Source: an uncultured Bacilli bacterium
Lineage (GTDB): Bacteria > Bacillota_I > Bacilli_A > RF39 > UBA660
NCBI GenBank assembly: GCA_958413985.1
Contig: CATYVZ010000006.1
Location: 2,072 to 66,071 of the forward strand
Direction of reading: 5' to 3'
Length of the DNA: 64,000 bases
A program made the translations under genes and the position numbers. Numbering within the stretch: the stretch's first letter is position 1; each line of letters starts with the position of its first letter. The notes below the pieces were generated by a model that was given only the letters and a program-made list of their open reading frames with translations, had not been told where the DNA came from and ran no database searches. Positions 5,179 through 26,372 of this stretch are shown here, one piece after another.

Positions 5179-5219
5179 GTTAATTATTATACCAAAAAAA
5201 GTTTAAATATTTAAACTTT

Positions 5220-8157: not shown

Positions 8158-8173
8158 AATGATAAGACGAGCT

Positions 8174-8467: not shown

Positions 8468-8470
8468 ATT

Positions 8471-9123: not shown

Positions 9124-9227
9124 CTTATCACAATTTAATTTTATCAGAATTTTAAATATTTTACAACATCTAAAACAATAAACATTATTAAATAGTTGTA
9201 AACAACTTAATTATTAGAAAAAAAGAC

Positions 9228-10541: not shown

Positions 10542-11159
10542 TACACAAATTAAAGTCTCTATATATGTCATAATCAAAAGTTGAGGATTACTTATTTGAA
10601 TAGAAATCGCTATACCACCGATAATTAAAAATATAAAAACAGGTATATATTTTTTATTTTTAAGTTTATTAATATTTGTTACCAACATAAATAATATAAC
10701 AATAATTGCTAAAGCCGAAATAAGATAAGTAAAATAAACACTCGCTCCAGTTGTATATCTTATTTTGAAATCATTCTCAATAATTATATTGATAGGTAAA
10801 ATAGATAAAATAATACCTACAATTATATAATATATAATAAATATAACATATCTATTCTTCTTAATTTCTAAATCATTATTTATGATACTATAAATATAAT
10901 AAGCAAATGTAGAAATCCATAGAATTATATAAAACAGATAAATTTTATAAATAATTACACTAATTAAAGGATGGTCAAAATAAATAAAAGAAGCATAAGT
11001 GCATAATAATTCTATTATCAATCCTACAAAATTAGAAATTATCAAAACACTGAATATTTGTGTCTCTTTACTATTTATATGTCCCTTAACATAAAACAAA
11101 ATTATAACTAACAAACTAAAAGGTACTGCACATAAAGGAAAAAATATTCCACTTCCCAT
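9228..11159 (-). CDS. Hybrid sensor histidine kinase, copy 1. It has a multi-TM sensor domain, HisKA, HATPase_c and a C-terminal receiver (REC) domain.
   Basis: H-box SHEIRTPLNAIVG, G-boxes (GTGLGLAI) and a REC domain (ILIVDDN...LILMDIMMP). The likely start is the second Met at 11159, which has a GGAGG RBS; the track start at 11177 has none. The C-terminal ~437 aa are identical to copy 2. Confidence 0.85.
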   Translation of the reverse strand: MGSGIFFPLCAVPFSLLVIILFYVKGHINSKETQIFSVLIISNFVGLIIELLCTYASFIYFDHPLISVIIYKIYLFYIILWISTFAYYIYSIINNDLEIKKNRYVIFIIYYIIVGIILSILPINIIIENDFKIRYTTGASVYFTYLISALAIIVILFMLVTNINKLKNKKYIPVFIFLIIGGIAISIQISNPQLLIMTYIETLICVIMYFTIENPDVKMLQQMTLAKDLAEKANRAKSDFLSSMSHEIRTPLNAIVGLSEDIVSYKDQVPNEVALDATDIQNASQTLLEIVGNILDINKIESEKMEIINTPYNLKKEIVSLCKVTTSRIKEKPIEFKLDIAEDLPEELIGDRIHIKQVINNLLSNAIKYTEKGMITLGIKCINEKDICKLIISVKDTGKGIKAENINKLFTKFERLDVEMNSTTEGTGLGLAITKSLVEMMGGKINVQSQYGKGSIFVVYLPQKISNQKRENIDINELSNENKKDLSGKKILIVDDNKLNIKVAIKALQDFNFEIEECYDGIECIEKVKEKEYDLILMDIMMPNMSGERALAKLKENKEFKTPVIALTADAVSGAREKYIKEGFVDYISKPFNKEQVKEKIENIFIKKEEVNTPQKVTYVYDSRTKEEYIIKDGQRNDLDNQL

Positions 11160-11187
11160 ATCATAACCTCCATACATCTATTTTGAT

Positions 11188-11202
11188 GTAATTATACCAC
11201 AC
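11188..11202 (-). promoter_or_regulatory. TRTG-extended -10 promoter for kinase copy 1 (TGTGgTATAAT), with no obvious -35
   Basis: Minus strand reads ttttttttGTGTGGTATAATtacatc, about 25 nt upstream of the first ATG. Confidence 0.4.
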
Positions 11203-11219
11203 AAAAAAAAGAATAGCAA

Positions 11220-12986
11220 TTATATACTATTCTTCAATTTTAATACTTTTGAGGCATTTATTTTTTCAACTGCATCATTTTCTAAATAGTCATAGTCAAT
11301 TTTTTCTGTACCCTTTTTTCTAGGAATCTCTGAAACAAATTCAATATAAGTAGGTATTTCATAGCGTTTTAATTGTTCTACTTGTCCATTGGCAGTTATT
11401 ATCGGTTTATTAAACTGTTCTTTAATTTCTTCTAAAACTTGATCTGATTGTTCTACTCCATCATTTAAAACAATATACGCCTTATTAACATATAAAGAAT
11501 CTTTAGCTGGAACTTTAACAACAGCACATTCACTCACTTTATCAAAATAAGAAATAATGTTTTGAACACGATCACAATATACTTTATTTAATGTAGAAAT
11601 TATATAAAATCTTGACTGTCTTCCTGTTAAGGTAAAATAACCTTGACGATCAATGAAACCTAAAGTACCAGTTTTAAAGTATATTTTTCCATCTTTTTCA
11701 AATTTAGCTTCTTTAGTTAATTCTGGCTGTTTATAATATTCCTTAAAAACATGTTTACCACAAACACATAATAATCCTTCTTCGTTGTATTTTTTTTCTT
11801 CCATTGTATCAGGATCAACTATAATTGCCTCGGTTCCAACAAGAATCTTGCCAGCTGTTTCCGGTCTTATTTCGATTCCTGTTGGATTAGTTCCACAACT
11901 TACCGTTTCAGCATTTCCTGAACCATTACCTATTTCTACGTTCTTAGCTCCATGATTTTCAAAAAAGTCTTTACCTCTCTTATAATGATTTGGAGTCAAA
12001 AAATCTCCTCCAGAAATAAATGTAGTAATAGATGATAGATCTTGATCTTTAGGTGTATAACGCATAATTAATTCTAATAATGCTGGACTTCCAAAGATAA
12101 TATTAGGCTTTTTCTTCAAATAATAACAAATAGTATCTTTGGAAATATTAGGAGCAAGAATTGCTGTTTTTTTACTCAATAAAGTCATAATTGTTGATGT
12201 GGCAAAACCATAAGGATAAGAAAATGGTACGCATACGAGTGTTCTATCACCATTTAAAGATTTAATGTGACTAGAATTTTTTAAATATACTCCTGCCGCC
12301 AAAACATTTTCATTAGTTAAAACAACCGATTTTGGTTTACCTGTTGTACCACTGGTAAATAATATCAAAGCGTCATCTTTCCCAGAGTTATTTGCCAAAC
12401 CTTTGCTCTGATATTTAGAAATACTTCCTAAACTATTAAAGTCGATCTTACTGTCATCACTAGTAATATGATAATCTTCATTTAATGATAATGTATTTGT
12501 TTTTTGTTTATCTAAAGTAATAATATATTTAACATTTGTTTTATTTTTTATATTAATATTTTCTTCTTTACTTTTATCATAGTTAATGAAAACAGGTGAT
12601 TCGAATAAATTAAGATAATCACAAATTTCATCTACTTGTGCATTAATATCTAAAAATGTCATCACCGCACCAATTCGATTACAAGCTAAAAATGCTGCTA
12701 CCGCCTGATAATAATTGGGCATACACACTGAAATAATATCGTTTTTTTTGACACCTAATTCTTTTAAAGCTTTGGAAATAGTTATAGCATCTTTAAATAG
12801 TTGATCATAACTTACTGTTAGATCAAGACAATCAATAGCATCTTTTCCTTTATAAAATGAATTTATTAATTTAATAGAATTGTAAATACTCATATTAGGT
12901 ATAATTGGATTTTTAGCAAAAATTGAATAACCTTTATTCTGTGGTTTATCAAAACTAGGATAGTCTTTAAAGTTTTCTTCCTTCAT
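11220..12986 (-). CDS. adenylate-forming enzyme, copy 1 (AMP-dependent synthetase/ligase, acyl-CoA-ligase-like)
   Basis: A3/core motif LFTSGTTGKPKSV, a YGxTE-like motif and a C-terminal domain. Strong GGAAGGGGGA RBS. Confidence 0.8.
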   Translation of the reverse strand: MKEENFKDYPSFDKPQNKGYSIFAKNPIIPNMSIYNSIKLINSFYKGKDAIDCLDLTVSYDQLFKDAITISKALKELGVKKNDIISVCMPNYYQAVAAFLACNRIGAVMTFLDINAQVDEICDYLNLFESPVFINYDKSKEENINIKNKTNVKYIITLDKQKTNTLSLNEDYHITSDDSKIDFNSLGSISKYQSKGLANNSGKDDALILFTSGTTGKPKSVVLTNENVLAAGVYLKNSSHIKSLNGDRTLVCVPFSYPYGFATSTIMTLLSKKTAILAPNISKDTICYYLKKKPNIIFGSPALLELIMRYTPKDQDLSSITTFISGGDFLTPNHYKRGKDFFENHGAKNVEIGNGSGNAETVSCGTNPTGIEIRPETAGKILVGTEAIIVDPDTMEEKKYNEEGLLCVCGKHVFKEYYKQPELTKEAKFEKDGKIYFKTGTLGFIDRQGYFTLTGRQSRFYIISTLNKVYCDRVQNIISYFDKVSECAVVKVPAKDSLYVNKAYIVLNDGVEQSDQVLEEIKEQFNKPIITANGQVEQLKRYEIPTYIEFVSEIPRKKGTEKIDYDYLENDAVEKINASKVLKLKNSI

Positions 12987-13015
12987 TTATTAATCCCCCT
13001 TCCAAAATCAAATAT

Positions 13016-13044
13016 ATAATAACGCAAATAACATTTTATGTCAA
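13016..13044 (-). promoter_or_regulatory. sigmaA-type promoter for the ligase-1/kinase-1 operon (TTGACA-17-TATTAT)
   Basis: Minus strand reads TTGACAtaaaatgttatttgcgtTATTAT, about 30 nt upstream of the RBS. Confidence 0.45.
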
Positions 13045-13090
13045 TTTTATTAAAATGACTAAATAAACGTTTTTCCGCTTATATAATTTA

Positions 13091-13459
13091 TTATTTATAA
13101 TTTTTTATTCCTTCTATATATTTTTTATAAATTATTCTTAAATTCCATAACCAATTTACTACATAATCAGAAAATTCACTTTCACTACCTAACTTATCAT
13201 TACAGATATATTTTGTCTGAAGAATATCTGATTTTTCGTAAAGATTTATCAAAATTTCGTTATCAATCATGTCTAGTTTTCTAGTTTTTTCATATTGTGC
13301 TGCCCATTTTGATATTATTTCTAACATATTATTGTATATTTCAAAATCTTCTTTATAAGTATCAAATTGTAAAATCAAATTTAAATAACCCATAAGACTT
13401 ATAAAGCATTTGCTAATATTTTTATAAGTCGGATTTGAATCTATATATTTATTTTTCAT
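13091..13459 (-). CDS. hypothetical protein (122 aa)
   Basis: ORF with no recognisable motifs. Confidence 0.4.
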   Translation of the reverse strand: MKNKYIDSNPTYKNISKCFISLMGYLNLILQFDTYKEDFEIYNNMLEIISKWAAQYEKTRKLDMIDNEILINLYEKSDILQTKYICNDKLGSESEFSDYVVNWLWNLRIIYKKYIEGIKNYK

Positions 13460-13511
13460 AAATTTTCCTTTTTTTAATACATATTATAATTTTTTATTAT
13501 TTAGAAAATTA

Positions 13512-14028
13512 TTACAAATCAAATTCGTAAATATTTTCTATGATTTTCAATCCACCAACATTTCCATCTTCACTATCGATTATTTTTCCACCTAATGCCG
13601 TGTAAAAATTTTCAGATGGACTTCCTTTTAAACATCTAACTATTATATTTTTATATCCCATATTTTTTAACAAATCAAAACATTCTGTAATTAATTTTTT
13701 ACCAATTCCTTTTCTTTGATTTTCTTTTTCTATATATATTGAATAAACTTCACCCATATCTACATAATCATTTCCACGTCCTTTACCATAGCAAGCAAAA
13801 CCCAATATGTCATTATCTTCTTCATAAACAATATAATGATATTCATTATCTTTTTTTATAGCTTCTTTTATATTATTATTTCTTTGTTCAAAATTTTTCT
13901 CTTGATTTATAAATATTTCTTCAGGAAAAAACTCACTATAAGTTGTCTTCCATGAATTTATATGTATTCTAGTTATTTTTTTTATGTGTTTATAGGTAAT
14001 CTTTGAAATACTTTTACATTTTTTCCAT
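13512..14028 (-). CDS. GNAT family N-acetyltransferase whose 5' end is disrupted by a +1 frameshift in an A6 tract. This could be a pseudogene, a slippage site or a sequencing error.
   Basis: The GNAT body frame is open from 14033 down to 13512 (...ITRIHINSWKTTYSEFFPEE...YHYIVYEEDNDILGFACYG...QRKGIGKKL...) with no in-frame start. An ATG at 14028 is followed by ATGGAAAAAATGTAA. Removing one A from the tract (14019..14024) fuses the ATG in frame, giving MEKCKSISKITYKHI... A TRTG-extended -10 (TGTGgCATAAT) lies at 14070..14081. Confidence 0.5.
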
Positions 14029-14170
14029 AAATATCACTTAATTCTTTATCTATATTTGATTCAAGATGTGATTATGCCACACGAAAGAAAATGGATATTA
14101 AAAATAATCTTATGATTTAGGACTAATTCTATGATTTATTTATCAACTTTAATATCAATAATAAAACACA

Positions 14171-14887
14171 TCATATATTTAGAATACTTTTAACTTCTTT
14201 TGCAGCTTGACAAATCAATTTAGTGCCATTTGACAAACATATTTTTCCATGACCAGATAAAACTATATCAGCTTTATATTTTGTTAACTTTATTATACTA
14301 TTAACAATTGCTTCTTTATTAAAAGCTGGATCCCCTTCCCAACCAAATAAAAATTTATTTAAGAAGACGCCATCTGCTTCCAATGTGTCACCGGTAAACA
14401 AAACAAATTCACCATCAACTTTTGCCCTAATAGCCATTCCTCCATTTGTATGCCCTGGTATCATAATAAATTCAAATACAATACCATTGATAATCATTTC
14501 TTGATCTACAAATATTTCTACATCAGGAATAAACGCAGGAAATGATTGTTCTATGTCATCTGATGTTCCTTTTGGACCGCCTTGTTTACAATAATTTGTA
14601 TCACCTGCCCCTACTATTATCTTTGCACCTGTCATTTGTAATTCTTTAGCACCGCCACAGTGATCATGGTGTCCATGAGTAAGAATAACATGCGTTATAG
14701 GCGAATTAATATTAAATTTTTTTAACGTTTTTCTTATTATAGCAGGACCGTTTAAAGCCTCTCCGCAATCTATTAATATTAATCCTTGATCTGTATTTAT
14801 ACCATATACTTCGCCTAATGTCCCTTTATTATTTTCAGCAGCAAAGCAGCTACCACTTAAATAAAATAAATTATTTGAAATTATCAA
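14171..14887 (-). CDS. MBL-fold metallo-hydrolase
   Basis: HxHxDH motif (THGHHDHCGG) with the downstream His and Asp ligands. TTG start with a GGAGG RBS. Confidence 0.75.
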   Translation of the reverse strand: MIISNNLFYLSGSCFAAENNKGTLGEVYGINTDQGLILIDCGEALNGPAIIRKTLKKFNINSPITHVILTHGHHDHCGGAKELQMTGAKIIVGAGDTNYCKQGGPKGTSDDIEQSFPAFIPDVEIFVDQEMIINGIVFEFIMIPGHTNGGMAIRAKVDGEFVLFTGDTLEADGVFLNKFLFGWEGDPAFNKEAIVNSIIKLTKYKADIVLSGHGKICLSNGTKLICQAAKEVKSILNI

Positions 14888-14915
14888 TTAAATCATCCTC
14901 CTTAAGATAAATTAT

Positions 14916-15623
14916 TTAATCAGCAATATCTACTGTTTCATCATCATTTGAAATAAGTTCAATATTTCCTTTACAAATTCTATAACATTTCCCATAAATT
15001 TTATTATTAAATACATATGATTTATCAGGAAGTCCATAAATAATTCTATTATTTGATTCTTTTATTATTGCATCCATTTGAATCTTGTTAGGATTATCAC
15101 AATCAAAATGCGGCTCAACATTAATTGTAGTTAAATCAAGTCCTTCTAATATAGTAGGGTTAGTTAAATCTTTTTCATTTTCAGGACTACTAAATACAAT
15201 TTTTGCACTATTTATTGAACCAGCACTTATGCCAACAATACACGCATCAGTTTTTTTTATATATTTTTTAAGATTTATGTTATTAAAAAACTTGTTTTGT
15301 TGAAATGCATTACCACCACTAAGAAAAATAAGTGAACTATTATTAAGTACATTATCAATATCTTCTTTATTACGATTATCAAGTACAACATTTTCCTTGA
15401 AGTGAAGCCCAGATAACGCTAGGACTTTCATATCTAATTTTAGATACTCATCATTTTGTTCATAATTATCAGGATCGCTCGCAATAATAACAAATTTATT
15501 ATAATTATTTATATTTTCCTTCATATTTTTTAAAAAATTATTATCTTCAAAAAATTTTACTGGTATTTTTTTACCATTTTCTTTTTTTATCCCCCCAATA
15601 TTACTAGCTAAAAATAATTTCAT
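14916..15623 (-). CDS. S51 family peptidase (peptidase E/cyanophycinase-like; Asp-Xaa dipeptidase fold)
   Basis: LSGGN and GISAGS nucleophile-elbow motifs, plus conserved His and Glu. Strong AAGGAGGA RBS. Confidence 0.65.
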   Translation of the reverse strand: MKLFLASNIGGIKKENGKKIPVKFFEDNNFLKNMKENINNYNKFVIIASDPDNYEQNDEYLKLDMKVLALSGLHFKENVVLDNRNKEDIDNVLNNSSLIFLSGGNAFQQNKFFNNINLKKYIKKTDACIVGISAGSINSAKIVFSSPENEKDLTNPTILEGLDLTTINVEPHFDCDNPNKIQMDAIIKESNNRIIYGLPDKSYVFNNKIYGKCYRICKGNIELISNDDETVDIAD

Positions 15624-15633
15624 TTTATCCTCC

Positions 15634-16656
15634 TTATTTATTAATGTTATACAATAAACTATTTTCTATATTTTTTTGTAAAGTTAACACTTTGTAAAAC
15701 TCATCTTTTTTTTGTTCAAAACTAGAATGATATTCCGCACCCAAATAATTTATAATTAAATTAACTACATCTTCATTAGGATATTGTAATTGCTCATTCC
15801 AATAATTTAATACACGTAAATATTGCCTAAATTTCATTCTTAAATGCTTGGATGAATGATTAGTAACATCTTCTTTTAATAAAATTGCTACAGCTACTAA
15901 TGCATCAGCAAATTTTTCTTTCATAATAGAATCTATATCAAGAAAATCTGCTATTCTTGAGCTGGATACTGTTGAACTTGTACCAAATTTACACATTGAT
16001 AAAGCTAAGTTACTGATTCCCATATCGACAGCTAACTTTCTTTCATTATTTTCCATAACAACAAAAGAAGCAAAATTCAAAAACTCGTTTGTACCTTTTT
16101 TTTTAAGTCCTATATTAAAATCCCTTCCAAAAATATTTTTTTCATCCATACCATATCGATGTCTATAATGTTCAATACTTGATTGATCAACTAAACGAGT
16201 TATTTTACTATCAACATTTTCAGTAGCCTTTATTAAATCCTCATCCGTAGAACTTACCCTTATACAAAGATTTTCAGGAGAGATATGCAAATATTTTTCA
16301 TCAGTTAAATAATCAAAAGTATCTTTAACAATTCTTTCTAGTTCTGGTTTTGCTATTATTCCCATTCCTCTATAATAACAGCCAAATTTTTGCGGTACAT
16401 TTGTTTGTAAATATTTAAATGATTTAAATTTCATACACTCTTGCACGATATATCTTCCAACATCACCGTAATTTTCAGTCTCTAAGTATTTTTTTAATGG
16501 TGAAATATTAGAACCAATAAAGTCAACCGTTGGATCAATTTTTGAAGTAACATTAACTGCAAGTTCTTCAATGTATCCTTTCTCATTAAAACAAACTTTA
16601 AATTTTTCTTCTATAAAATCTAAATATTCGCTTTTGCTAATTTTTTTATCACTCAT
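15634..16656 (-). CDS. stand-alone paralog of the alanyl-tRNA synthetase catalytic core (class II aaRS-like, AlaRS N-terminal domain only)
   Basis: 340 aa that align by eye to the first ~250 aa of the alaS in this window. DPTVDFIGSNISPLKKYL matches DPSVLFNTAGMQPLIPYL, QECMKF matches QKCIRT, ISPENLCIRVS matches IPVERLAVTVF, and AVDMGISNLALS matches the motif-3 region NVDTGMGYERV. The tRNA-recognition and editing domains are absent. Confidence 0.55.
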   Translation of the reverse strand: MSDKKISKSEYLDFIEEKFKVCFNEKGYIEELAVNVTSKIDPTVDFIGSNISPLKKYLETENYGDVGRYIVQECMKFKSFKYLQTNVPQKFGCYYRGMGIIAKPELERIVKDTFDYLTDEKYLHISPENLCIRVSSTDEDLIKATENVDSKITRLVDQSSIEHYRHRYGMDEKNIFGRDFNIGLKKKGTNEFLNFASFVVMENNERKLAVDMGISNLALSMCKFGTSSTVSSSRIADFLDIDSIMKEKFADALVAVAILLKEDVTNHSSKHLRMKFRQYLRVLNYWNEQLQYPNEDVVNLIINYLGAEYHSSFEQKKDEFYKVLTLQKNIENSLLYNINK

Positions 16657-16661
16657 TTATA

Positions 16662-18506
16662 TCACTCTACTTCTTTTTTATCGTTAGACATTTTTAATAG
16701 TTCTCCTAAATAATAACTAATATTAGATTCAGTTACACTATTATTAATACTACCTTTATACGAATCAAGTTTTAAAAAACTATCAATTTCTTTTCCCAAT
16801 TGTTTAACAGTTTCTTTATACATTTGTGTATTAAATCTAGGAGTACATATTAATATACTTTTTGTAAGATTTATTTTATGTTTTTTAATTAATTCAACTG
16901 TTTTAGCCACTGATTCATTAGTATCCCCCATCATACCAAGCATAAAGAAACCATTATAATTAATTCCTGCTTTTTTGATTGCATATAGGGCTTTTAATAA
17001 TTGTTCATTAGAATAATTCTTGTTATTAATTTTACGAACATTTTCATCAAAACTTTCAATTCCTAACCAAATTAATTGGCAACCTGCTTTTTTCATAACA
17101 ACAAGAGTATCATAATCTATTGAATTTATACAAATCTGACATTGCCATTTGATTTGAATATTAGCCTTTATCATTTCTTTACATAAATTTTTTGCGTAAT
17201 TTTTATCAAGTATGAAATTCTGATCTAAGAAAAATATTTCTGTTATTCCACGTTTTTGTATTTCTTTTAATTCAGCTACTACTGATTCTATTTTTCTAAA
17301 ACGAACACTTTTGGCAAAAAAGTTGTAACAAAAAGCACAATTAAATGGACACCCTCTACTTGCCTGAACAATACTCCAGTGCAATTTTCTTACTGGCATA
17401 TTGTCATGATACCTATAACCAAAATAACAATCTAAATGAATCAAATCATAATTAGGTATATATTTACACCATTCAGTTGGATGTTGTTCATTCAAATCTT
17501 CTCTTGTTTTAATTAATTTTTTATTCTTTTTATAAATAATATTGGGAAGATTTTCAATTGGAAGATTTTGATCCATATCCCTAATTATATTAGCAAGCTG
17601 GATATCAAATTCGCCTTTTAATATATAATCTGGGTTACAATCTTTAAAGACGATATCTGGTCTCACAGTACCATGTCCTCCGCATACAATAATTGGTATA
17701 TTATTAAACTTATTTTTGATAGTTTTTACATATTTTGTAAAAACTACATAACGATAATCAACAAAATAATTATGTACTTGATCAACTGTTGAAGAACAAA
17801 TGACTATTCCTTTTTTGTAATCACGTATAATATTAAGTAAATCAGTTAATGAATAATTATAAATTCGATTATCAAGAATATCAACATCTATAAAAAAATT
17901 ATTTTTTAAATAAGTTGCACAATTCATTAAAGCTAAAGGCGGTTGAACAAAAGTTGTTCCATTTAAAAATTCTGGTATTAAGAATATGTATTTCCCTTTT
18001 TTCTTGAATTTTTTACTCATATCATTATTTAAACTTGTAATTGCATCAGTTAAATAATCTGGGGCTTCTTTAGTAATTTCTTCTATTTTCTTTTTACTTA
18101 TATCAAGTTGTTTTGGGCTATAAACACGATGCGTATTTTTTATAAAGTATAATATAGCAACAAGTTTTCTGGGTTTCATATCCTCGATAGCAAAAATTGC
18201 ATCAAATATTTCATTCTGTAAAGATTTTGTAGTATACTTATAAATTATTGATGATAATTCAATGATCTGTGCTATAAAATTTGATTGTTTTTTAATGCTA
18301 CTAACAACTTTTCTAACATATTCTCTTTTTTCCACTAAAGTTGCCTGTTTTAAAAAATATGTACGCATAATAAGCAATAAATTAATTTGTTCTGATTCAC
18401 TAAATTTATCAATTTTTTTTATAGTTTCATCATAAATTTCTTTTTGTTTCTTATTATTATATGTATTTATTCTTTTTATTTTTAATAATAATGTTTCTTT
18501 ATCCAC
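16662..18506 (-). CDS. B12-binding-domain radical SAM enzyme (class B radical SAM) with an unassigned ~170-aa N-terminal domain
   Basis: CxxxCxxC (RGCPFNCAFCYN), a preceding Rossmann-like B12-binding region (...IPIIVCGGHGT...), and a GTG start with an AGGAGA RBS. It lies 17 nt downstream of the preceding gene. Confidence 0.75.
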   Translation of the reverse strand: MDKETLLLKIKRINTYNNKKQKEIYDETIKKIDKFSESEQINLLLIMRTYFLKQATLVEKREYVRKVVSSIKKQSNFIAQIIELSSIIYKYTTKSLQNEIFDAIFAIEDMKPRKLVAILYFIKNTHRVYSPKQLDISKKKIEEITKEAPDYLTDAITSLNNDMSKKFKKKGKYIFLIPEFLNGTTFVQPPLALMNCATYLKNNFFIDVDILDNRIYNYSLTDLLNIIRDYKKGIVICSSTVDQVHNYFVDYRYVVFTKYVKTIKNKFNNIPIIVCGGHGTVRPDIVFKDCNPDYILKGEFDIQLANIIRDMDQNLPIENLPNIIYKKNKKLIKTREDLNEQHPTEWCKYIPNYDLIHLDCYFGYRYHDNMPVRKLHWSIVQASRGCPFNCAFCYNFFAKSVRFRKIESVVAELKEIQKRGITEIFFLDQNFILDKNYAKNLCKEMIKANIQIKWQCQICINSIDYDTLVVMKKAGCQLIWLGIESFDENVRKINNKNYSNEQLLKALYAIKKAGINYNGFFMLGMMGDTNESVAKTVELIKKHKINLTKSILICTPRFNTQMYKETVKQLGKEIDSFLKLDSYKGSINNSVTESNISYYLGELLKMSNDKKEVE

Positions 18507-18523
18507 AATTCATGTCTCCTATA

Positions 18524-20707
18524 TTATTTTTTAAAATCAGTTTCACTAATTTTACTTTCAACTATTTTAAACTTTTTATTTTCATATACTATTTTACAAT
18601 AATCAATATCAATATATTGTTCACCATCAATTGCTGACTTCAAATTACTCATTGTTGCTCCATGAGTAATGATTGCAAACTTCTTATAAGAACTATTAAC
18701 TAAATATTTTTCTAAAAAATACATTAATCTTTCCCTAACATGATTAATACTTTCACCATCAGCTACAACTTTATTATAATTAACAATTGCCTCTTTACCT
18801 TCTTGACTATTTAAAAAATCAGAAAGTGGTTTACCTTGAAATTTTCCCACATTCCAAGCTCTTAACTCTTTATGAAAAGATACTGGTATTTTAAAACCAT
18901 TATTAGCTAGTTCAACGGTTCTTCTAGTCCTAATAAGATCTGATGAATAAATATATTCAATTTCATTTTTCTTTAATTCTAAAGCAATTTTATTAATTTG
19001 CTCTAATCCTTTATCAGTAAATTTCAAAGATGCATCTTCAAATGTTCCTCTAATTTTATTTTCAACATTCCAATTAGTTTCACCATGTCTAAAAATATAA
19101 ATTTCTTTTTTGTCATTTTTTTTACTATTCTTCTCTTCTAACTTTTTCATTGGAGATAATCTATCTCTTAATCTGAAATCCATATTTTTATTATCGTTAA
19201 CAAAATCTTCTATTTTATTTATTTTTTTATCTGGAAAAAACATATTATAATATGCAATTGCTGTTTGAACATCTTGTTCTGACATTTCAAAGTGTCCTAG
19301 TTTAACTAACCCTAAGAAATCTTTATACTTATCCCTATCTAGTTGTTCACTTAATTCTTGATTTAATATTGAAGTATTAGAATTTAGATAATATTTTTTT
19401 ATAACATTTTTAGGTGATTTTATTAATTTTTGCATACTAACAGGCATGTTTTCTATTAATTTTTCATTTACAAGCCCTTGCTTTATGTAATCTTGTAATA
19501 TTCTAATATAAGCATAAAGCCTTATTTTTGCATCAGCAAAAAGGATTGCACTTGCATAATCTCTAATACCATTAGCTTTCATTAACGTAACTGTTTTAGG
19601 TGATATTTCTAATACAATTTTTTCTCTATATTTTGAACCATTATCAATATATGCTCTTGTAATTAAATTTGTCAATGTATGATTTAATGATGTTTCGTAA
19701 TTATCTTCATAGATATTTAATTGATCATCTTGAATACTATTTTGCCATGTACTAATGTTGCCATTATATTCTACAAGCCAATCTAATCCAAATCCACCAT
19801 CAGAATTATATACACGTGACGGAAAATAATTTTGTGATTCATCTAAATCTATGTCATACAGTTCTACCATTTTCATAAATGATTCATTATTATGTAGATT
19901 TGGTCTAAATGATGGATAAAATACCCTTGATATTCCAATTATTATTTCAAAACCAGAATCGAGTATTAATTTTGATTTCCAAGGCATTATCTTAATAATT
20001 TTATCATCATCAGATTTATTAGGTTGAAACTTTTCAATTTTATATTTTCTCCCAATTGTTTTTAGATTATTTTCTAATGTTGAATCTTCTTTAAATGTTT
20101 TTATTTGTAAAGTAAAGTTTTTATTATATCTATATTTAGATTCAAATATATTAATTAAGTTTTCTAACGGAAGATGTTTTAATTTAATACTATGATATTG
20201 ACTAACACTTAATCTAATAGAGATACGTGCTTTCTTTTTTCTTTTTTTGATAGCTTGATATATTTCATCTAAATATTTTTCCGCTCTTTCTTTATTATAT
20301 GCCCATAGACCACCAGTAACTAAAACTATCCTATCAGCGTTTATTTTTTCAATACTTTTTAATAGTGCTTCTTTTTCTAAAAAAGGCTCTCCGCCACCAG
20401 ATATTTGTAAATAACCAACATTTGCTTTATTAGCAAAATCAATAAATTTATCAACACCTTCAGGAGTAAATTGATTCTTAATATTCTTTTTACTAGCTGA
20501 CGATAAAGCTTTAAAACAGCAGAAAGGACAGCCAACATCACACACTGATGTAAACATAACCAATACCAATGATTTTCCTGCATATTTTTTCTTATCAATT
20601 TTTAATAAACCTTCTTGTTTATTAATTGAATCTATATACATTTCTGGATAATTAAATATATTTTCTATATTACAATCAATATTTTTTATTTCTTCTTTTT
20701 TCACCAT
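18524..20707 (-). CDS. fusion protein: N-terminal radical SAM domain, a central domain of unknown function, and a C-terminal histidine phosphatase (phosphoglycerate-mutase-like) domain
   Basis: CDVGCPFCC radical-SAM cysteine triad with a QISGGGEP SAM-binding motif. The C-terminus has IYIFRHGETNWN (RHG catalytic motif) and ...IITHGATM... typical of the His_Phos_1 superfamily. Confidence 0.75.
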   Translation of the reverse strand: MVKKEEIKNIDCNIENIFNYPEMYIDSINKQEGLLKIDKKKYAGKSLVLVMFTSVCDVGCPFCCFKALSSASKKNIKNQFTPEGVDKFIDFANKANVGYLQISGGGEPFLEKEALLKSIEKINADRIVLVTGGLWAYNKERAEKYLDEIYQAIKKRKKKARISIRLSVSQYHSIKLKHLPLENLINIFESKYRYNKNFTLQIKTFKEDSTLENNLKTIGRKYKIEKFQPNKSDDDKIIKIMPWKSKLILDSGFEIIIGISRVFYPSFRPNLHNNESFMKMVELYDIDLDESQNYFPSRVYNSDGGFGLDWLVEYNGNISTWQNSIQDDQLNIYEDNYETSLNHTLTNLITRAYIDNGSKYREKIVLEISPKTVTLMKANGIRDYASAILFADAKIRLYAYIRILQDYIKQGLVNEKLIENMPVSMQKLIKSPKNVIKKYYLNSNTSILNQELSEQLDRDKYKDFLGLVKLGHFEMSEQDVQTAIAYYNMFFPDKKINKIEDFVNDNKNMDFRLRDRLSPMKKLEEKNSKKNDKKEIYIFRHGETNWNVENKIRGTFEDASLKFTDKGLEQINKIALELKKNEIEYIYSSDLIRTRRTVELANNGFKIPVSFHKELRAWNVGKFQGKPLSDFLNSQEGKEAIVNYNKVVADGESINHVRERLMYFLEKYLVNSSYKKFAIITHGATMSNLKSAIDGEQYIDIDYCKIVYENKKFKIVESKISETDFKK

Positions 20708-20761
20708 TTTTCAACATCTACTTTCTTTGTTTTTTTTACAAGATTCCTATTATTAAACATA

Positions 20762-22201
20762 CTATCTTTTATTAAATTCTTTTATCTTTCTTTTTGCATA
20801 AGTGGTCTGTGCTTTATTTATCCAATCTTCTCTTGGCCCAAATGATAAATCATCAGTAACTATTCTAACTCTATCTTTATTTTGTAATACATAATCTACT
20901 GGTACATATTCATCATTTACAAACACTCCAACCATTGTGTTTCCTATATCTGTATGAATTTTATAGGCAAAATCTATCGCTGTCGCCCCTTTGGGAAGCT
21001 CTATAATATCTCCTTTAGTTGTATAAACATATACTCTATCAGCAAATAATTCACTTTTTACTTGATTTATAAATTGTTGATTATCTCCAAACATAGAATT
21101 TATTTCTGTTAACGATTTAAAAAATTGAAATTTTTCTTTTAGATTCTCTTGCATCACATCTCTTGCTTTTCCTTTTTGTTCATCCCAATATGCCGTTAAA
21201 CCAAACGATGCTACTTTGTCCATATCGAAAGTTCTAATTTGAGTTTGAACTAATCTATCATCAGGACCAAACACTGTCGTATGTAAACTTCTATACATAT
21301 TTGTTTTTGGATTACATATATAATCTTTAAATTTATCATTTATTGGATGATATTCTTGATGAATCAAACCTAATGTTAAGTAACAATTTTCTATTTCATC
21401 AACCATTATTTTTAAAGCAAGCAAATCATGAATATCTGATAATTTATGACCTTCATTTAATCTTTTGTATATACCATATATATTTTTAGTTCTTACTTTT
21501 ATTTCATTAGGTATATTCCTATTTTTTAATAATGTTTCTATTTTATATAGCATTTCCTTAAGACAGTTTTTACTTGTTTCTTCAATCTTTGTTTTTCTTT
21601 CTTCAATTTTTTTATACATGTCTGGTTTAAGATATTGTAAAGATAAATCTTCTAGTTCTGACTTTATTCTATATGCTCCGATATAATATGCAAGTGGTAC
21701 AAATATTTCCATCGTTTCAAGGGCATTTTCTTTTTGCTTAAATTCTGATTTAAACTCTAATGTTCTCATATTATGAAGTCTATCGGCAAGTTTTATTATA
21801 ATTATTCTTACATCTTCTGTTATTCCTGTTATTATCTTTCGAGTATTTGCTAAATTTTGATCTTGTTTCGAAGAAAAATTCATTTTAGATAGTTTTGTTA
21901 CTCCATCTACTAAATTAGCAATATTTTGGTTAAAATCATGGGCAATATCTTCTTTAGTAATATTAGTATCTTCTAAAGTATCATGTAAAAGACCTGCACA
22001 TACTGTATCTTTATCAGCATGCATGTCAGATAAAATATATGCAACATTCAAAGGATGACTTATATATGGTTCACCACTTTGTCTCATTTGTCCTTTATGC
22101 AAAGCATCTGCATATTCATAAGCCTTTTTTACAATTCCTATCTCATCTGGATTATATTCTTCTAGTTTATTTAATAAATCTTGTAACACAATATTATTCA
22201 T
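20762..22201 (-). CDS. RelA/SpoT homolog (long RSH; HD hydrolase + synthetase + TGS) that lacks the C-terminal helical/ACT(RRM) region. The true start is at 22201.
   Basis: HD motif LLHDTLEDT, synthetase motifs (IHDLLALKIMV; RSLHTTVFGPDDRLVQTQIRTFDMDKVASFGLTAYW) and a TGS domain (VYVYTTKGDIIELPKGATAIDFAYKIHTDIG). The ATG at 22201 has a GGAGGTG RBS. The 24-codon upstream extension in the ORF track lacks one. Confidence 0.8.
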   Translation of the reverse strand: MNNIVLQDLLNKLEEYNPDEIGIVKKAYEYADALHKGQMRQSGEPYISHPLNVAYILSDMHADKDTVCAGLLHDTLEDTNITKEDIAHDFNQNIANLVDGVTKLSKMNFSSKQDQNLANTRKIITGITEDVRIIIIKLADRLHNMRTLEFKSEFKQKENALETMEIFVPLAYYIGAYRIKSELEDLSLQYLKPDMYKKIEERKTKIEETSKNCLKEMLYKIETLLKNRNIPNEIKVRTKNIYGIYKRLNEGHKLSDIHDLLALKIMVDEIENCYLTLGLIHQEYHPINDKFKDYICNPKTNMYRSLHTTVFGPDDRLVQTQIRTFDMDKVASFGLTAYWDEQKGKARDVMQENLKEKFQFFKSLTEINSMFGDNQQFINQVKSELFADRVYVYTTKGDIIELPKGATAIDFAYKIHTDIGNTMVGVFVNDEYVPVDYVLQNKDRVRIVTDDLSFGPREDWINKAQTTYAKRKIKEFNKR

Positions 22202-22250
22202 CAAAACACCTCCGAATAGAAAAATAATCGGTGCTAAAAACACATAATGT

Positions 22251-22388
22251 TTAACTAGCACCGATATTATCATATTTGTTATTTAAAGCAGAATAGAAAC
22301 ATGAACAAATAATGTCAGTAAAATATTGATTTCTAACACTTAATTCTTTTACATAATCAATGATTAATTCATCAATTAGTTTTATCAT
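22251..22388 (-). CDS. small protein (45 aa), first gene of the operon
   Basis: MIKLIDELIIDYVKELSVRNQYFTDIICSCFYSALNNKYDNIGAS. It has a very strong RBS (GAGGGGGAA + 6 nt + ATG) directly downstream of the operon promoter. Confidence 0.45.
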   Translation of the reverse strand: MIKLIDELIIDYVKELSVRNQYFTDIICSCFYSALNNKYDNIGAS

Positions 22389-22420
22389 ACTAAATTCCCC
22401 CTCAAATAAATTTAAGCAAT

Positions 22421-22448
22421 ATTTTACTACTTTACAAAAAAATGTCAA
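22421..22448 (-). promoter_or_regulatory. sigmaA-type promoter (TTGACA-16-TAAAAT) for the operon small ORF -> rel-like -> rSAM/His-phosphatase -> B12-rSAM -> AlaRS-like -> S51 peptidase -> MBL hydrolase
   Basis: Minus strand reads TTGACAtttttttgtaaagtagTAAAAT, followed by intergenic gaps of only 5-54 nt down to 14171. Confidence 0.45.
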
Positions 22449-22499
22449 TAGTTTTATAAAAATAAATCACCGTTAAAACAATTAATATCTAAAATACAT

Positions 22500-23813
22500 C
22501 TAAAGTTGATTATCTAAATCATTTCTTTGGCCATCTTTTATTATATATTCTTCTTTAGTTCTTGAATCATAGACATAGGTTACCTTTTGTGGTGTATTAA
22601 CTTCTTCTTTTTTTATAAATATATTTTCTATCTTTTCTTTTACCTGTTCTTTGTTAAATGGTTTTGATATGTAATCTACAAATCCTTCTTTGATATATTT
22701 TTCTCTTGCTCCTGATACTGCATCAGCTGTTAATGCTATTACTGGTGTTTTAAATTCTTTATTTTCTTTTAATTTGGCTAAAGCTCTTTCACCACTCATA
22801 TTAGGCATCATTATATCCATCAATATTAAATCATATTCTTTTTCTTTTACTTTTTCGATGCACTCTATTCCATCATAACATTCTTCTATTTCAAAGTTAA
22901 AATCTTGCAATGCTTTAATTGCTACTTTGATGTTTAATTTATTATCATCTACTATCAATATCTTTTTGCCTGATAAATCTTTTTTGTTTTCGTTAGATAA
23001 CTCATTTATATCGATATTTTCTCTTTTTTGATTACTTATTTTCTGAGGTAAATAAACTACAAATATCGATCCTTTTCCGTATTGACTTTGAACATTTATC
23101 TTACCACCCATCATCTCTACTAATGACTTAGTTATAGCTAGTCCTAATCCGGTTCCTTCGGTTGTTGAATTCATCTCAACATCTAATCTTTCAAATTTAG
23201 TGAATAATTTGTTGATATTTTCTGCTTTTATTCCTTTCCCTGTGTCCTTAACACTTATGATTAATTTACATATATCTTTTTCATTGATACATTTTATTCC
23301 TAATGTTATCATACCTTTTTCTGTATATTTGATCGCATTAGACAATAAATTGTTGATTACTTGTTTTATATGAATCCTATCCCCGATTAATTCTTCCGGT
23401 AAATCTTCAGCTATATCTAATTTAAATTCGATTGGTTTTTCTTTTATTCTACTAGTCGTCACTTTACATAATGACACTATTTCTTTTTTTAAATTATATG
23501 GAGTATTGATAATTTCCATTTTTTCTGATTCGATCTTATTTATATCTAAGATATTACCTACTATTTCCAATAGCGTTTGTGAAGCATTTTGAATATCAGT
23601 AGCATCTAAAGCTACTTCGTTTGGTACTTGATCTTTATAGCTTACGATATCTTCACTTAATCCTACTATTGCATTTAATGGCGTTCTTATCTCATGAGAC
23701 ATACTACTTAAAAAGTCACTCTTAGCTCGATTAGCTTTCTCAGCTAAATCTTTTGCTAGAGTCATTTGTTGTAACATCTTAACATCTGGGTTTTCGATTG
23801 TAAAATACATGAT
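22500..23813. repeat. 1314-bp direct repeat, copy B (partner of 9228..10541)
   Basis: See copy A. Confidence 0.9.
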
Positions 23814-24413
23814 AATAACAATTAGCGAAAAAACATATCCTATTAAAAATAATTGTGGATAAAAAACACCTAAAACAAAAACTAAACCACCTAAAAAAAT
23901 TAAGGCATATAATGGTGTAAATTTAGATTTTACAATTTTCTTCATATATTTTATGCAAATAATTATATCAAACATTAAAAATAGCAAACACAAACCGTAA
24001 GTTAAATAAATTGATAATCCTTGCGGAATTATGGTATCGTCAACTCTAATAAAGTTGATTGGTAACAACAATATAATTAATACGATAAAAGCAACAATAA
24101 AATTAAATATTCTATTTCTATTTTCTTTATAGTTACATATATTTAACAAATAATTTAAAAACAATGCGCTCCAAACAGCATAATATGAAGATGTTAATTT
24201 AGAAAACAACTTATATATAGTTGTTTCAACAGATATTCCAGATTCATACCAAATACAAGTTAATATTTCTAAAAATAACCCCAATAATGTAACTATTAAT
24301 AACTTACTATAAATAGTTGTTTCACTATTTTTTACTCTTTGTTTTGAAAAAAACATAAATGACAAAATTAACAATATTAGTAATGAACTAATTGAAAAAT
24401 ACACACCCATCAT
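22500..24413 (-). CDS. Hybrid sensor histidine kinase, copy 2. Its multi-TM sensor domain differs from copy 1; the transmitter and receiver are identical to copy 1.
   Basis: The C-terminal ~437 aa are identical to copy 1. The N-terminal ~200 aa (about 6 TM segments) are unrelated in sequence. Start is ambiguous between GTG at 24422 and ATG at 24413 or 24410. Confidence 0.85.
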   Translation of the reverse strand: MMGVYFSISSLLILLILSFMFFSKQRVKNSETTIYSKLLIVTLLGLFLEILTCIWYESGISVETTIYKLFSKLTSSYYAVWSALFLNYLLNICNYKENRNRIFNFIVAFIVLIILLLPINFIRVDDTIIPQGLSIYLTYGLCLLFLMFDIIICIKYMKKIVKSKFTPLYALIFLGGLVFVLGVFYPQLFLIGYVFSLIVIIMYFTIENPDVKMLQQMTLAKDLAEKANRAKSDFLSSMSHEIRTPLNAIVGLSEDIVSYKDQVPNEVALDATDIQNASQTLLEIVGNILDINKIESEKMEIINTPYNLKKEIVSLCKVTTSRIKEKPIEFKLDIAEDLPEELIGDRIHIKQVINNLLSNAIKYTEKGMITLGIKCINEKDICKLIISVKDTGKGIKAENINKLFTKFERLDVEMNSTTEGTGLGLAITKSLVEMMGGKINVQSQYGKGSIFVVYLPQKISNQKRENIDINELSNENKKDLSGKKILIVDDNKLNIKVAIKALQDFNFEIEECYDGIECIEKVKEKEYDLILMDIMMPNMSGERALAKLKENKEFKTPVIALTADAVSGAREKYIKEGFVDYISKPFNKEQVKEKIENIFIKKEEVNTPQKVTYVYDSRTKEEYIIKDGQRNDLDNQL

Positions 24414-24461
24414 AACACCCACTTATTAATAAAATTTAACATCATTTACTTATCTCTAAAA

Positions 24462-26180
24462 TTATTTTTTTAGTGCCAATACTTTAGCTCTTTCTTCTGT
24501 TATAGTTTCACTATCTATTTGAGATAAATCTTTAGACTGATAATAAGATATATCAACCTTTGAGTTACTCATTCTTTTTAACGGCTCATAAGAATATTCA
24601 ATATATCCTGGTAACCAATTTTCACTTAAATTCTTTTTAACAAAAGATTTTAATTTCTTTTCGAATTGTTCTATATTTAAATTCTTATCATATAACGAAA
24701 TGTGATAGCTAGGAATAAATTGTCTAATTTCATCAGGCACACCAGTTACTAGTACTTCTCTAACTTGAGGAAAAGACATAATCAAGTTTTCTAATTCCTC
24801 AGGATAAATATTTTCAATACCAGAGACAAAATTTCTTTTTTGTCTTCCTACATATTTGTATTCACCAGTTTCTGTATTTTGAATATAGTCCCCTAGATTA
24901 CACCATTTTTTTCCATGTTCATCGTAAGAAATCACTTTTTTTGTTTCGTCAGGATTATTAAAGTAACCTAGCATTACAGATGGACCAGATACATAAAGCA
25001 ATCCTTTTTCACCATTATTGACTTCTTTTTTTGTTTCTGGGTCAACTAATTTAATTTCTAAACACGATAAAGCTTGACCAATCGTTCCGGGCGTGTGTTT
25101 TTTACCATTATTAATCATAATAGATGACCAAGTTTCCGTAGCGCCTAATCCATCACCTAATACTGCATCACTTCCACATAACTTTAATGCTTCATTAATA
25201 GCTTTTTCGGTTGTCGCTTTTTTAGCTTCCCCACCTGATGTAGCATAATGCAAATGAGATAATGAATCTTGTTTCAATCTACTGCTTGGAACGAAGTCAT
25301 CTCCTTTTTTTTCGATCAATGAAACCCAATGCGGTGGACCACCTACTGCTGCATTTGCTTTAGTCCTTACTAATTCATCATAAAAATCTTCTGGCTTAGC
25401 TTTCAATGTTAAAGCTAATTCCATGTTATTGCATAATGAATAATGCATAATCATTCTACCATAAACCATATGGCCGATTGGAATATTACCTAAATGGATC
25501 ATGCCCGGCTCAGCATCAAAAATGCCGTTCATACTTGCTACAACATGATTTAAGCCTTTTCCAGATAATTCTACACCTTTGTGAATCCCAGTCGAACCAC
25601 CAGTGAACATTACATCAGTAACCTCATCATCTATATAGATACCTTTTTTAAAGTCAGTACCATCATCCTTTTTAATAATCGAATTTAAATTTGAATTTCT
25701 TGACAATTTAAAATTACCTTTTTTTAATTGTAAAATTTTATATCCTAATTTTAATTTCATATCATTTACAGATTCTAATGGTGAATAAAGTATAGTCGAA
25801 AAATTTAAAGCCTTTTCATATTCCTTAAAATTACTATAACTCATATCGACAGAAATAATCATTTTCGGATGCGTTAATTCGATATCTTTTCCTACTTTTA
25901 TTTTATTATCGATAGGGCTTATACCTACCACTTCTGCACCTAATAAATCTAAAGCATATAACAAAAACACAGATTCAGGAGTATTTAAAGCGCAGACACC
26001 TATCATATCTCCTTGTCTAATTCCTCTTTGATATAATATTTTTGCATATTTATTTATCCTATCATGTAATTCTTCATAAGATATTTTTCTATCAAAAAAA
26101 GTTAATGCTGTATAATTCATATACTTGTCGTTATTGTTCAACAAAAAATTATACTTTCTATCATTTGGATTTGCCACCAT
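24462..26180 (-). CDS. adenylate-forming enzyme, copy 2 (AMP-binding superfamily), diverged from copy 1
   Basis: MFTGGSTGIHKGV P-loop-like adenylation motif. AAAGGGGGAAAA RBS. A TRTG-extended -10 (TGTGtTATAAT) lies at 26231..26247. Confidence 0.75.
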   Translation of the reverse strand: MVANPNDRKYNFLLNNNDKYMNYTALTFFDRKISYEELHDRINKYAKILYQRGIRQGDMIGVCALNTPESVFLLYALDLLGAEVVGISPIDNKIKVGKDIELTHPKMIISVDMSYSNFKEYEKALNFSTILYSPLESVNDMKLKLGYKILQLKKGNFKLSRNSNLNSIIKKDDGTDFKKGIYIDDEVTDVMFTGGSTGIHKGVELSGKGLNHVVASMNGIFDAEPGMIHLGNIPIGHMVYGRMIMHYSLCNNMELALTLKAKPEDFYDELVRTKANAAVGGPPHWVSLIEKKGDDFVPSSRLKQDSLSHLHYATSGGEAKKATTEKAINEALKLCGSDAVLGDGLGATETWSSIMINNGKKHTPGTIGQALSCLEIKLVDPETKKEVNNGEKGLLYVSGPSVMLGYFNNPDETKKVISYDEHGKKWCNLGDYIQNTETGEYKYVGRQKRNFVSGIENIYPEELENLIMSFPQVREVLVTGVPDEIRQFIPSYHISLYDKNLNIEQFEKKLKSFVKKNLSENWLPGYIEYSYEPLKRMSNSKVDISYYQSKDLSQIDSETITEERAKVLALKK

Positions 26181-26372
26181 ACAATTTTCCCCCTTTAATT
26201 AATATCAAAACTTCAATAGCGCTGCACGAAGTGATTATAACACAAAATTTTTTTTATGCTGGTTTTATGTTTGAAATAGGAAACCAAATGTTTTAACAAA
26301 AAAATAATTGTCTAAAACATATATTTTTATGTCTATTTTATTATAATCTTCAAAAGATTATCAAAAAAAAGA

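Follow-up and report, generated by a model that had tools for sequence, protein, structure and literature searches.

In Vibrio, synthase genes adjoin the genes of their receptor kinases, and in Escherichia coli the lipid-handling membrane protein LplT, a major facilitator family transporter without a signalling domain, is encoded with Aas, which joins a PlsC-type acyltransferase to an adenylate-forming acyl-acyl carrier protein synthetase. LuxM/LuxN, CqsA/CqsS and LuxQ of Vibrio all feed LuxU (PMC5394107); the rpf cluster of Xanthomonas encodes the fatty acyl-CoA ligase RpfB, the diffusible signal factor (DSF) synthase RpfF, the hybrid sensor kinase RpfC, and RpfG (PMC4504480); and CrbS/CrbR (MxtR/ErdR) controls acetyl-CoA synthetase (PMC5436829, PMC5715377). 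The locus described here resembles each of these in some respect: a 64,000-nucleotide stretch of DNA from an uncultured Bacilli bacterium of the RF39 lineage (assembly GCA_958413985.1, contig CATYVZ010000006.1, positions 2,072 to 66,071; hereafter the window) carries two gene pairs, in each of which an adenylate-forming ligase is followed by a hybrid histidine kinase with a seven-helix membrane sensor. The feature is real and conserved. A literature search found no paper on an adenylate-forming ligase paired with such a kinase and no relevant work on RF39 histidine kinases, in agreement with an earlier, sequence-only reading of the stretch, which was aware of no characterised system of this type.

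Pair A consists of ligase A and then kinase A, and pair B of ligase B and then kinase B; they lie 13 kb apart, in DNA of about 27% G+C in which the minus strand carries every gene from 6.5 to 31 kb:

11220-12986, minus strand: ligase A, adenylate-forming (ANL superfamily), 588 residues (Pfam AMP-binding, 9.6e-58, and AMP-binding_C)
9228-11177, minus strand: hybrid histidine kinase A, 649 residues (Pfam HisKA, HATPase_c and Response_reg)
10512-11177, minus strand: seven-helix sensor domain of kinase A, terminating in MYFTIENPD
24462-26180, minus strand: ligase B, adenylate-forming (ANL superfamily), 572 residues (Pfam AMP-binding, 6.9e-48, and AMP-binding_C)
22500-24422, minus strand: hybrid histidine kinase B, 640 residues, with seven-helix sensor, HisKA, HATPase_c and receiver (Pfam)
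23784-24422, minus strand: seven-helix sensor domain of kinase B (full-length alignment to sensor A, 31-33% identity)

The sequence-only reading had described two co-directional AMP-binding ligase-hybrid kinase pairs with gaps of 40-43 nt, and both are present, with gaps between the longest open reading frames (ORFs) of 42 nt in pair A and 39 nt in pair B; the span it gave for the two, 11220-26180, runs from ligase A to ligase B and omits kinase A. The motif strings it quoted were recovered in the ligase translations (ligase A contains LFTSGTTGKPKSV and ligase B contains MFTGGSTGIHKGV), and its description of the ligases as clearly different paralogs is borne out by an identity of 25% between them. 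Read from the sequence, the likely start of kinase A is the ATG at 11159, 7 nt past GGAGG (11167-11171), and that of kinase B the ATG at 24410; with these starts the gaps become 60 nt (pair A) and 51 nt (pair B), and both kinases begin with MG.G, the N-terminus typical for the family. Both are hybrid histidine kinases by definition, their translations containing a HisKA domain with the phospho-accepting His (H-box SHEIRTPL), HATPase_c, and a receiver with the conserved Asp (motif DLILMD).

A scan of species-representative genomes with ligase A yielded 78 loci with homologues at 45-80% identity (L numbers below denote these and other related loci). Seventy-one of these could be evaluated, having an intact ligase and at least 300 nt of downstream sequence, and pairing was counted when an A-type sensor kinase started within 300 nt. 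An A-type kinase lies directly downstream of the ligase-A homologue in 63 of the 71 species-level loci, and the sensors of the kinases behind ligase-A homologues are 45-69% identical to that of kinase A. The exceptions differ in kind: in L039 the gene after the ligase encodes an Hpt-receiver protein, with the kinase at another place in the locus; in L059 and L060 an ABC-F gene lies between ligase and kinase; in L073 the ligase is disrupted and the kinase still stands behind it; and L052, L057, L075 and L080 have no adjacent kinase, three of these four being labelled Lachnospiraceae or Butyrivibrio. L057 may be mis-binned, because its ligase resembles the gut-Bacilli type despite its Agathobacter label. 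Ligase-B homologues (66-89% identity) precede a B-type kinase in three of three different contexts and, starting from a profile of the sensor domain instead, an AMP-binding gene was found immediately upstream in all three contexts inspected. Conservation outside this genome had been set beforehand as the check that could refute the pairing, and all three counts uphold it: the ligase-kinase pairing is far beyond chance.

Flanking genes vary between cassette loci, and when neighbours were clustered, only the ligase and the kinase were universal, the next most linked being small Hpt, receiver or Hpt-receiver genes. The pair moves between contexts as a unit, and the cassette is typical of uncultured, small-genome gut Bacilli/Mycoplasmatota: the homologues belong to genomes assembled from gut metagenomes, of uncultured organisms that carry the labels Bacilli, Tenericutes, Mycoplasmatota, 'Mycoplasma sp. 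CAG:956', 'CAG:611' or 'Candidatus Faecisoma', and the lengths of related contigs (1.1-1.3 Mb, with one contig circular) point to small genomes. The organism of the window has a cell wall, to judge by the class A penicillin-binding protein that the window encodes. We rejected the notion that the cassettes are cargo of mobile elements, since their contexts are mostly housekeeping, with conjugation genes beside L093 only. In that locus (413-9828 and 14574-21722), a ligase B-kinase cassette is flanked on one side by VirB4-like and TraG-like conjugation genes and on the other by an integrase and a type I restriction system, a hint that cassettes can travel on mobile elements.

Additional ligase-kinase pairs are found in other genomes, at times in tandem (L024, L064, L068). 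Besides A and B there are at least three more ligase families, the five being mutually 23-33% identical and each preceding a family kinase, and in L010 and L086 a PlsC-type acyltransferase, likewise an enzyme that handles lipids, takes the ligase's place before such a kinase. Sensor type tracks ligase type: sensors behind A-type ligases are 51-60% identical to each other and those behind B-type ligases 53-88%, as compared to 22-36% across types. All cassette kinases examined have in common the MYFTIENPD junction, of whose ENPD, on the cytoplasmic face, the E and D are invariant in an 88-sequence alignment, and a small number of positions are conserved among them in the predicted cytoplasmic first loop and the predicted outward-facing beta hairpin. 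The two pairs of the window had been taken to be products of duplication and divergence in this genome; they rather represent two cassette families of old origin, A and B, within each of which conservation between species is 45-89%.

The two kinases of the window are nonetheless nearly identical over 9232-10541 and 22504-23813, which the sequence-only reading overlooked. The identity takes the form of a direct repeat:

9232-10541: repeat copy 1, 1,310 nt, the cytoplasmic coding part of kinase A
22504-23813: repeat copy 2, 1,310 nt, the cytoplasmic coding part of kinase B

Compared position by position at an offset of 13,272 nt, the copies show two mismatches (9258 and 10518), both synonymous. 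Upstream of the repeat (past 10541) identity drops to 58% and then, within 200 nt, to about 40%, and directly past the stop codon it is at background; the tract starts at MYFTIENPD, the end of the seventh helix, and stops at the stop codon. Overall the kinases are 76% identical, with 100% over the cytoplasmic 433 residues and about 31% in the N-terminal membrane part, and they resemble each other only because their cytoplasmic halves have been homogenised; with ligases at 25% and sensors at about 31% identity, the pairs are not recent duplicates. The identity of the kinases would have arisen by gene conversion (or a recent module swap) confined to transmitter and receiver and bounded by MYFTIENPD and the stop codon; RecA is encoded within the window. 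Near identity of the kinases over 1,310 nt would also follow if the double pair were a recent duplication, tandem or segmental, or if the assembly had wrongly entered one kinase sequence twice, but we regard this as extremely unlikely: the identity has sharp limits, at the junction and the stop codon, ligases and sensors differ as described, the flanks are unrelated, and L024 shows the same pattern, with about ten more genomes implying it as well. An artefact of assembly is ruled out by the two differing positions, with the copies resolved separately, and by six independent public metagenome contigs with exact ligase A, which terminate at or just inside the repeat.

Elsewhere the degree of homogenisation varies. 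In L024, an independent genome, the DNA of two kinases agrees at 100% for a length of at least 1 kb, with sensors at 29%; in L064 the two cytoplasmic parts are 81% identical mutually and about 30% identical to those of other genomes; and in L068 and L010 the cytoplasmic parts are not homogenised. There are 31 loci in which no more than 10 kb of contig remains downstream of the ligase. In 10 of them the contig end falls 23-148 nt past the junction, where about 0.5 such ends would be expected by chance, and in three more it coincides with the end of the cytoplasmic module. The pile-up of contig ends past the junction is the signature of an intragenomic repeat, and these loci taken together suggest that identical transmitter modules inside one genome are common in this lineage. 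Because the repeat breaks short-read assemblies inside kinase genes, many database entries for the family are truncated, and many end at the sensor/transmitter junction. In L094 (6001-7858), L095 (6001-7884) and L096 (6001-8237), the kinase after the ligase is split in two ORFs, through a frameshift or an assembly error.

The sensor has no Pfam family: when the N-terminal 240 residues of kinase A and 231 of kinase B were searched at E≤1, the sole match was a sub-threshold holin (E 0.037, 14.6 bits against a cut-off of 28.4), and a literature search found no published description of the sensor family. An AlphaFold2 model of residues 1-240 of kinase A (predicted local distance difference test score, pLDDT, 90.3; predicted template modelling score, pTM, 0.85) contains seven helices, with a hairpin separating the fourth from the fifth, and a Foldseek search of the PDB matched G-protein-coupled receptors (GPCRs) only, none of them significantly. 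The predicted fold is a GPCR-like seven-helix bundle, a resemblance of fold only, whose N-terminus and hairpin would, by the positive-inside rule, face outward. The membrane part alone, searched against 1.84 billion cluster representatives (50% identity clusters), recovered 1,442 clusters at E≤1e-3 and at least 644 at E≤1e-10. The domain is always N-terminal, and the full-length members sampled, about 550-1,040 residues long and most near 600, carry kinase and receiver domains; these architectures were taken from the representative search, a sensor-profile search of a large protein database having returned almost exclusively truncated proteins. Among 65 full-length representatives, 55 have a receiver, 55 HATPase_c and 6 Hpt, and at the position of the phospho-accepting His, 19 keep it and 24 have Gln.

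With the rpf cluster the cassette shares a fatty-acid-type adenylate-forming ligase clustered with a multi-helix membrane hybrid kinase, which in rpf senses a fatty-acid signal, RpfB handling free fatty acids related to that signal. However, rpfB is paired with rpfF, and rpfC lies in the convergent rpfGHC operon, whereas here the ligase is directly upstream of the kinase; no crotonase-type synthase (RpfF) or HD-GYP regulator (RpfG) is found among recurrent cassette neighbours; and the sensor is a different seven-helix domain, present in many paralogous cassettes of Gram-positive-derived gut Bacilli/Mycoplasmatota. CrbS is also a hybrid kinase with a large membrane domain, which governs carboxylic acid use via an AMP-forming ligase, but CrbS, an SLC5/STAC kinase like CbrA, senses through an SLC5 transporter-like domain and has a STAC linker, whereas the N-terminal 240 and 231 residues here match no transporter family (E≤1). 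Moreover, acs is a transcriptional target of CrbS/CrbR rather than a fixed upstream neighbour, and a DNA-binding regulator is known for CrbS, whereas neighbour clustering linked none to the cassette. The PlsC-type and adenylate-forming enzymes of LplT-Aas are the same two types that precede the family kinases, but the ligases here have no acyltransferase domain and reach 130 bits with the Aas model, against a cut-off of 1221. Like 7TMR-DISM, 5TMR-LYT and MASE, the sensor is a helical bundle that serves as input domain at the N-terminus of a protein with a signalling output; unlike them, it is matched by no Pfam model at E≤1, and it occurs N-terminally only. The cassette differs from Agr in that the kinase core is an ordinary HisKA/HATPase_c plus receiver and not of AgrC type (HPK10), with no AgrB/AgrD among the neighbours. 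The Vibrio systems likewise place an enzyme gene beside a multi-helix hybrid kinase without Hpt, with sensors that converge on one Hpt protein, but their partner enzymes are an acyl-homoserine lactone synthase and a pyridoxal phosphate-dependent acyltransferase rather than an adenylate-forming ligase, their transmitters are not sequence-identical, and the NCBIfam LuxQ model gives 271 bits against a cut-off of 1200, on the cytoplasmic part only. The defining parts of the rpf, CrbS/CrbR and Vibrio systems are absent, and the cassette is thus not a member of any of them.

Neither window kinase contains an Hpt domain, and we found no Hpt or Hpt-receiver homologue in the 64-kb window, which therefore does not encode a complete phosphorelay, with Hpt and terminal response regulator alongside the kinase. 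In relatives Hpt is fused to the kinase C-terminus, stands alone, or is joined to a receiver just downstream, and 36 Hpt-containing ORFs were counted across the fetched related loci. The identical transmitter and receiver halves imply that sensors A and B feed the same downstream partner, probably an Hpt protein and then a receiver protein, and so would form two inputs into one relay. Quorum sensing of the Vibrio kind (PMC5394107) could be arranged in this way: the ligase would make or commit the precursor of a diffusible acyl signal, the adjacent kinase would detect it, and several channels would converge on one Hpt. The position of the enzyme directly upstream of a multi-helix hybrid kinase without Hpt, the separate Hpt or Hpt-receiver in relatives, the possibility of several parallel cassettes per genome and the convergence on a single relay implied by identical transmitters all fit; YcaO and radical SAM/SPASM peptide-modification clusters also adjoin the cassette in L091 and L092, and radical SAM genes are found in the window. 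However, a lone adenylate-forming ligase gives an acyl-adenylate or thioester, neither of which crosses membranes, no exporter and no further biosynthetic enzyme accompanies the cassette consistently, and a terminator-like hairpin often separates ligase from kinase, so that we consider quorum sensing unlikely.

The signals at the junctions were read as follows:

11203-11235, minus strand: terminator-like hairpin (stem 11225-11235 / 11208-11218) and T8 run, overlapping the ligase A stop codon (sequence and folding)
11191-11219, minus strand: promoter-like site before kinase A, TTGCTA, 17 nt, TGgTATAAT (extended -10)
13016-13044, minus strand: promoter-like site upstream of ligase A, TTGACA, 17 nt, TATTAT (11 of 12 matches)
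26234-26244, minus strand: extended -10 promoter-like site TGtTATAAT upstream of ligase B (read from sequence)

In pair A an AT-rich hairpin leads into the T8 run, directly followed by TGgTATAAT and then by a good ribosome-binding site for kinase A; at the junction of pair B, neither sequence nor folding gave a hairpin. The sequence-only reading had named independent transcription, with a strong terminator between the genes, as the observation that would speak against coupling, and on this the two pairs diverge, pair A having both the hairpin and a promoter-like site and pair B none. When related junctions were scored by a simple criterion, the layout of pair A, a hairpin with a T run, was present in 32 of 61; a -10-like hexamer lies just past the T run in 28 of the 32, of which 21 have the TG, and in about a quarter of related junctions the gap is too short for a hairpin or promoter. 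A consensus terminator scan found nothing, because it demanded three G-C pairs and the stem of pair A is AT-rich, and an Rfam search of 8500-28500 matched none of its families, which means that the intergenic hairpin belongs to no known type of riboswitch or leader. To judge from these signals, co-transcription of ligase and kinase may occur and is apparently not required, and the intervening signals suggest that adjacency is kept for some other reason. A rival explanation would involve no direct biochemical link, the ligase being a conserved neighbour that is, for instance, the main regulated target of the relay, under shared regulation or jointly transferred. The hairpin and independent promoter-like site between the genes in about half of the loci would be explained, as would the kinase-less ligase-A homologues of Lachnospiraceae-type genomes, and CrbS/CrbR does control the acetyl-CoA synthetase gene without protein contact (PMC5436829, PMC5715377). 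We think this quite unlikely, however, since five divergent ligase families hold their position and order before their own sensor type in many contexts, a C-terminal tail is specific to the kinase-paired ligases, and regulation alone does not as a rule preserve adjacency as strictly as in 63 of 71 species.

Both ligases have the domains of ANL enzymes, PF00501 with the values listed above and PF13193 above cut-off, and two of the three core catalytic motifs are recognisable in both: the loop rich in Ser, Thr and Gly that closes with Lys (SGTTGKPK in ligase A, GGSTGIHK in ligase B) and the catalytic C-terminal Lys (GTEKID and SNSKVD, respectively). Their weak best family matches are fatty-acid and other acyl-CoA ligases, and the nearest models and structures, at a generic level, are long-chain and other acyl-CoA ligases, malonyl-CoA synthetase and luciferases; the best NCBIfam scores are 196 bits for ligase A and 152 bits for ligase B, against a cut-off of 476 each, and the best solved-structure matches reach only about 1e-28. 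The third motif, TGD, supplies the Asp that in adenylate-forming enzymes makes contact with the ATP ribose; at this position ligase B keeps LGD and ligase A has TGT (residue 441), with a Thr that is nearly invariant in its family. Two assignments were considered and rejected: a nonribosomal peptide synthetase or lipopeptide module, carrier and condensation domains being absent from all cassette neighbourhoods inspected, and DltA-type D-alanylation, DltB/C/D genes being absent and no ligase model reaching its cut-off.

In each of the five families, ligases paired with a kinase have at their C-terminus a short basic tail with alternating hydrophobic residues, which follows the pattern K-V/L-L-x-L-K-K (for example KVLKLKNSI, AKVLALKK, AKTLRLKKI and KTLKLKR). 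In a small unpaired sample, the tail is absent from the kinase-less homologues L080 (Butyrivibrio) and, weakly so, L052 (Lachnospiraceae-type), and it is also absent from the second AMP-binding ORF in L058 (3799-5616). A basic tail common to ligase families otherwise only about 25% identical, together with an acidic ENPD junction conserved in every cassette kinase examined, would suit a ligase that docks on the kinase and whose catalytic state is read by it, the seven-helix domain serving mainly as an anchor or being itself acylated or adenylylated by the ligase. Such a co-sensor or trigger enzyme would also account for the persistence of the pairing in kinases without the phospho-accepting His, and for strict order and adjacency even across transcription signals. 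Yet no fused ligase-kinase protein was found among the 150 best sensor-family representatives, and the sensors are diverse and type-specific, which suggests that they have different ligands of their own; we rate docking of this kind as rather unlikely.

That the ligase-kinase pair is a functionally coupled module we consider likely. We are more doubtful, and lean slightly against rather than for it, that the coupling runs via a shared substrate or ligand of a fatty-acid-like kind, and as a whole the following explanation, the best that we can offer, is put forward tentatively. Each seven-helix domain would detect a lipophilic (fatty-acid-like) carboxylic acid in or at the membrane, and the partner ligase would adenylate or thioesterify the same compound on the cytoplasmic face, so that sensing would be tied to the compound's uptake, assimilation or removal, comparable to RpfB/RpfC or CrbS-to-Acs in Proteobacteria. 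The ligase may be anchored by its basic amphipathic tail, either to the membrane or to the acidic ENPD junction of the kinase; direct contact with the kinase in this manner would be an attractive extension of the scheme. Consumption or activation of the cue fits better than its production, because a lone ligase makes products that are confined to the cell and no further gene accompanies the pair consistently.

Several observations weigh against this explanation. The matches of the sensor to GPCR-like folds carry no information on ligand, and neighbour clustering linked no carrier protein, transporter or lipid gene consistently to the cassette. Neither ligase reaches any curated NCBIfam cut-off (FadD, MenE, Acs, Aas, malonyl-CoA synthetase and others), the Thr that replaces a near-universal Asp in the ligase-A family may mean altered chemistry, and a structure prediction for ligase A from a 16-sequence alignment had a pLDDT of 53 and was unusable for pocket or fold. 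With a hairpin and a separate promoter-like site in pair A and about half of the related loci, expression of the two genes may be uncoupled. Finally, about 70% of the wider kinase family is without the phospho-accepting His and still keeps the ligase partner, as in L064, where His-less kinases (8132-9949 and 11818-13620) retain ATPase and receiver domains and have a ligase upstream; the link may thus not run via classical kinase activation. One could envision a more far-reaching arrangement that embraces these kinases, although we hold it to be rather improbable: a GPCR-fold sensor kinase would form an obligate pair with an adenylate-forming enzyme docked on its cytoplasmic side, arrays of such pairs in each genome would each serve a different gut lipid or organic acid and feed one relay, with the transmitter kept identical by gene conversion and the His-less members acting as non-kinase partners, and the whole would be a previously undescribed receptor class.

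The block from ligase B to kinase A (window 9124-26372) sits between alaS and ireB-ruvX-DUF1292-mltG. At the same site a close relative, L091 (10001-18555; ligase B 88% identical), has ligase B, kinase B, a GNAT gene, a C39 peptidase and YcaO, and pair A is absent; the site between alaS and ireB is a variable insertion site. Between the two pairs of the window (14171-22273), and co-directional with them, lie genes for a short Rel/SpoT homologue, a radical SAM-histidine phosphatase fusion, a B12-binding radical SAM protein, a 340-residue protein without family, an S51 peptidase and a metallo-beta-lactamase-fold protein, which may together form a cluster for modifying small molecules or peptides; in L092 and L094, too, the cassettes have S51 peptidases and radical SAM/YcaO genes nearby. 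The 340-residue protein (15634-16656, minus strand) is matched only weakly, by the N-terminal region of short-form alanine-tRNA ligases (NCBIfam PRK01584, E 1.4e-6), is 27% identical over 70 residues to the alanine-tRNA ligase of the window, and has no Pfam or PDB match. That alanine-tRNA ligase (26373-28133, minus strand) is itself a short form of 586 residues that ends past the editing-related domain and has no usual C-terminal domain, and the one in L091 is likewise short (583 residues). The Rel/SpoT homologue (20762-22273, minus strand; 503 residues) comprises HD, synthetase and TGS domains after a hydrophobic start and has no C-terminal regulatory domains; just upstream of it, a short ORF in another frame, from 22387, has a strong ribosome-binding site and a promoter-like site. 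A GNAT ORF at 13512-13805 (minus strand) encodes 97 residues that cover the C-terminal half of the family model only, as compared to 166-167 residues in L007 and L091, and is probably a remnant.

The small-genome gut bacteria that carry the cassette have never been cultured, and their sensing is almost undescribed; the diversified unit of sensor and enzyme is probably their main chemical sensing device. Once found, the substrate of a ligase would be a strong candidate for the ligand of its sensor. The locus is in addition a natural example of modular two-component evolution, in which the input half is distinct and the output half identical within one genome, and the placement of the breakpoint at a single conserved junction motif could guide the engineering of chimeric sensors.

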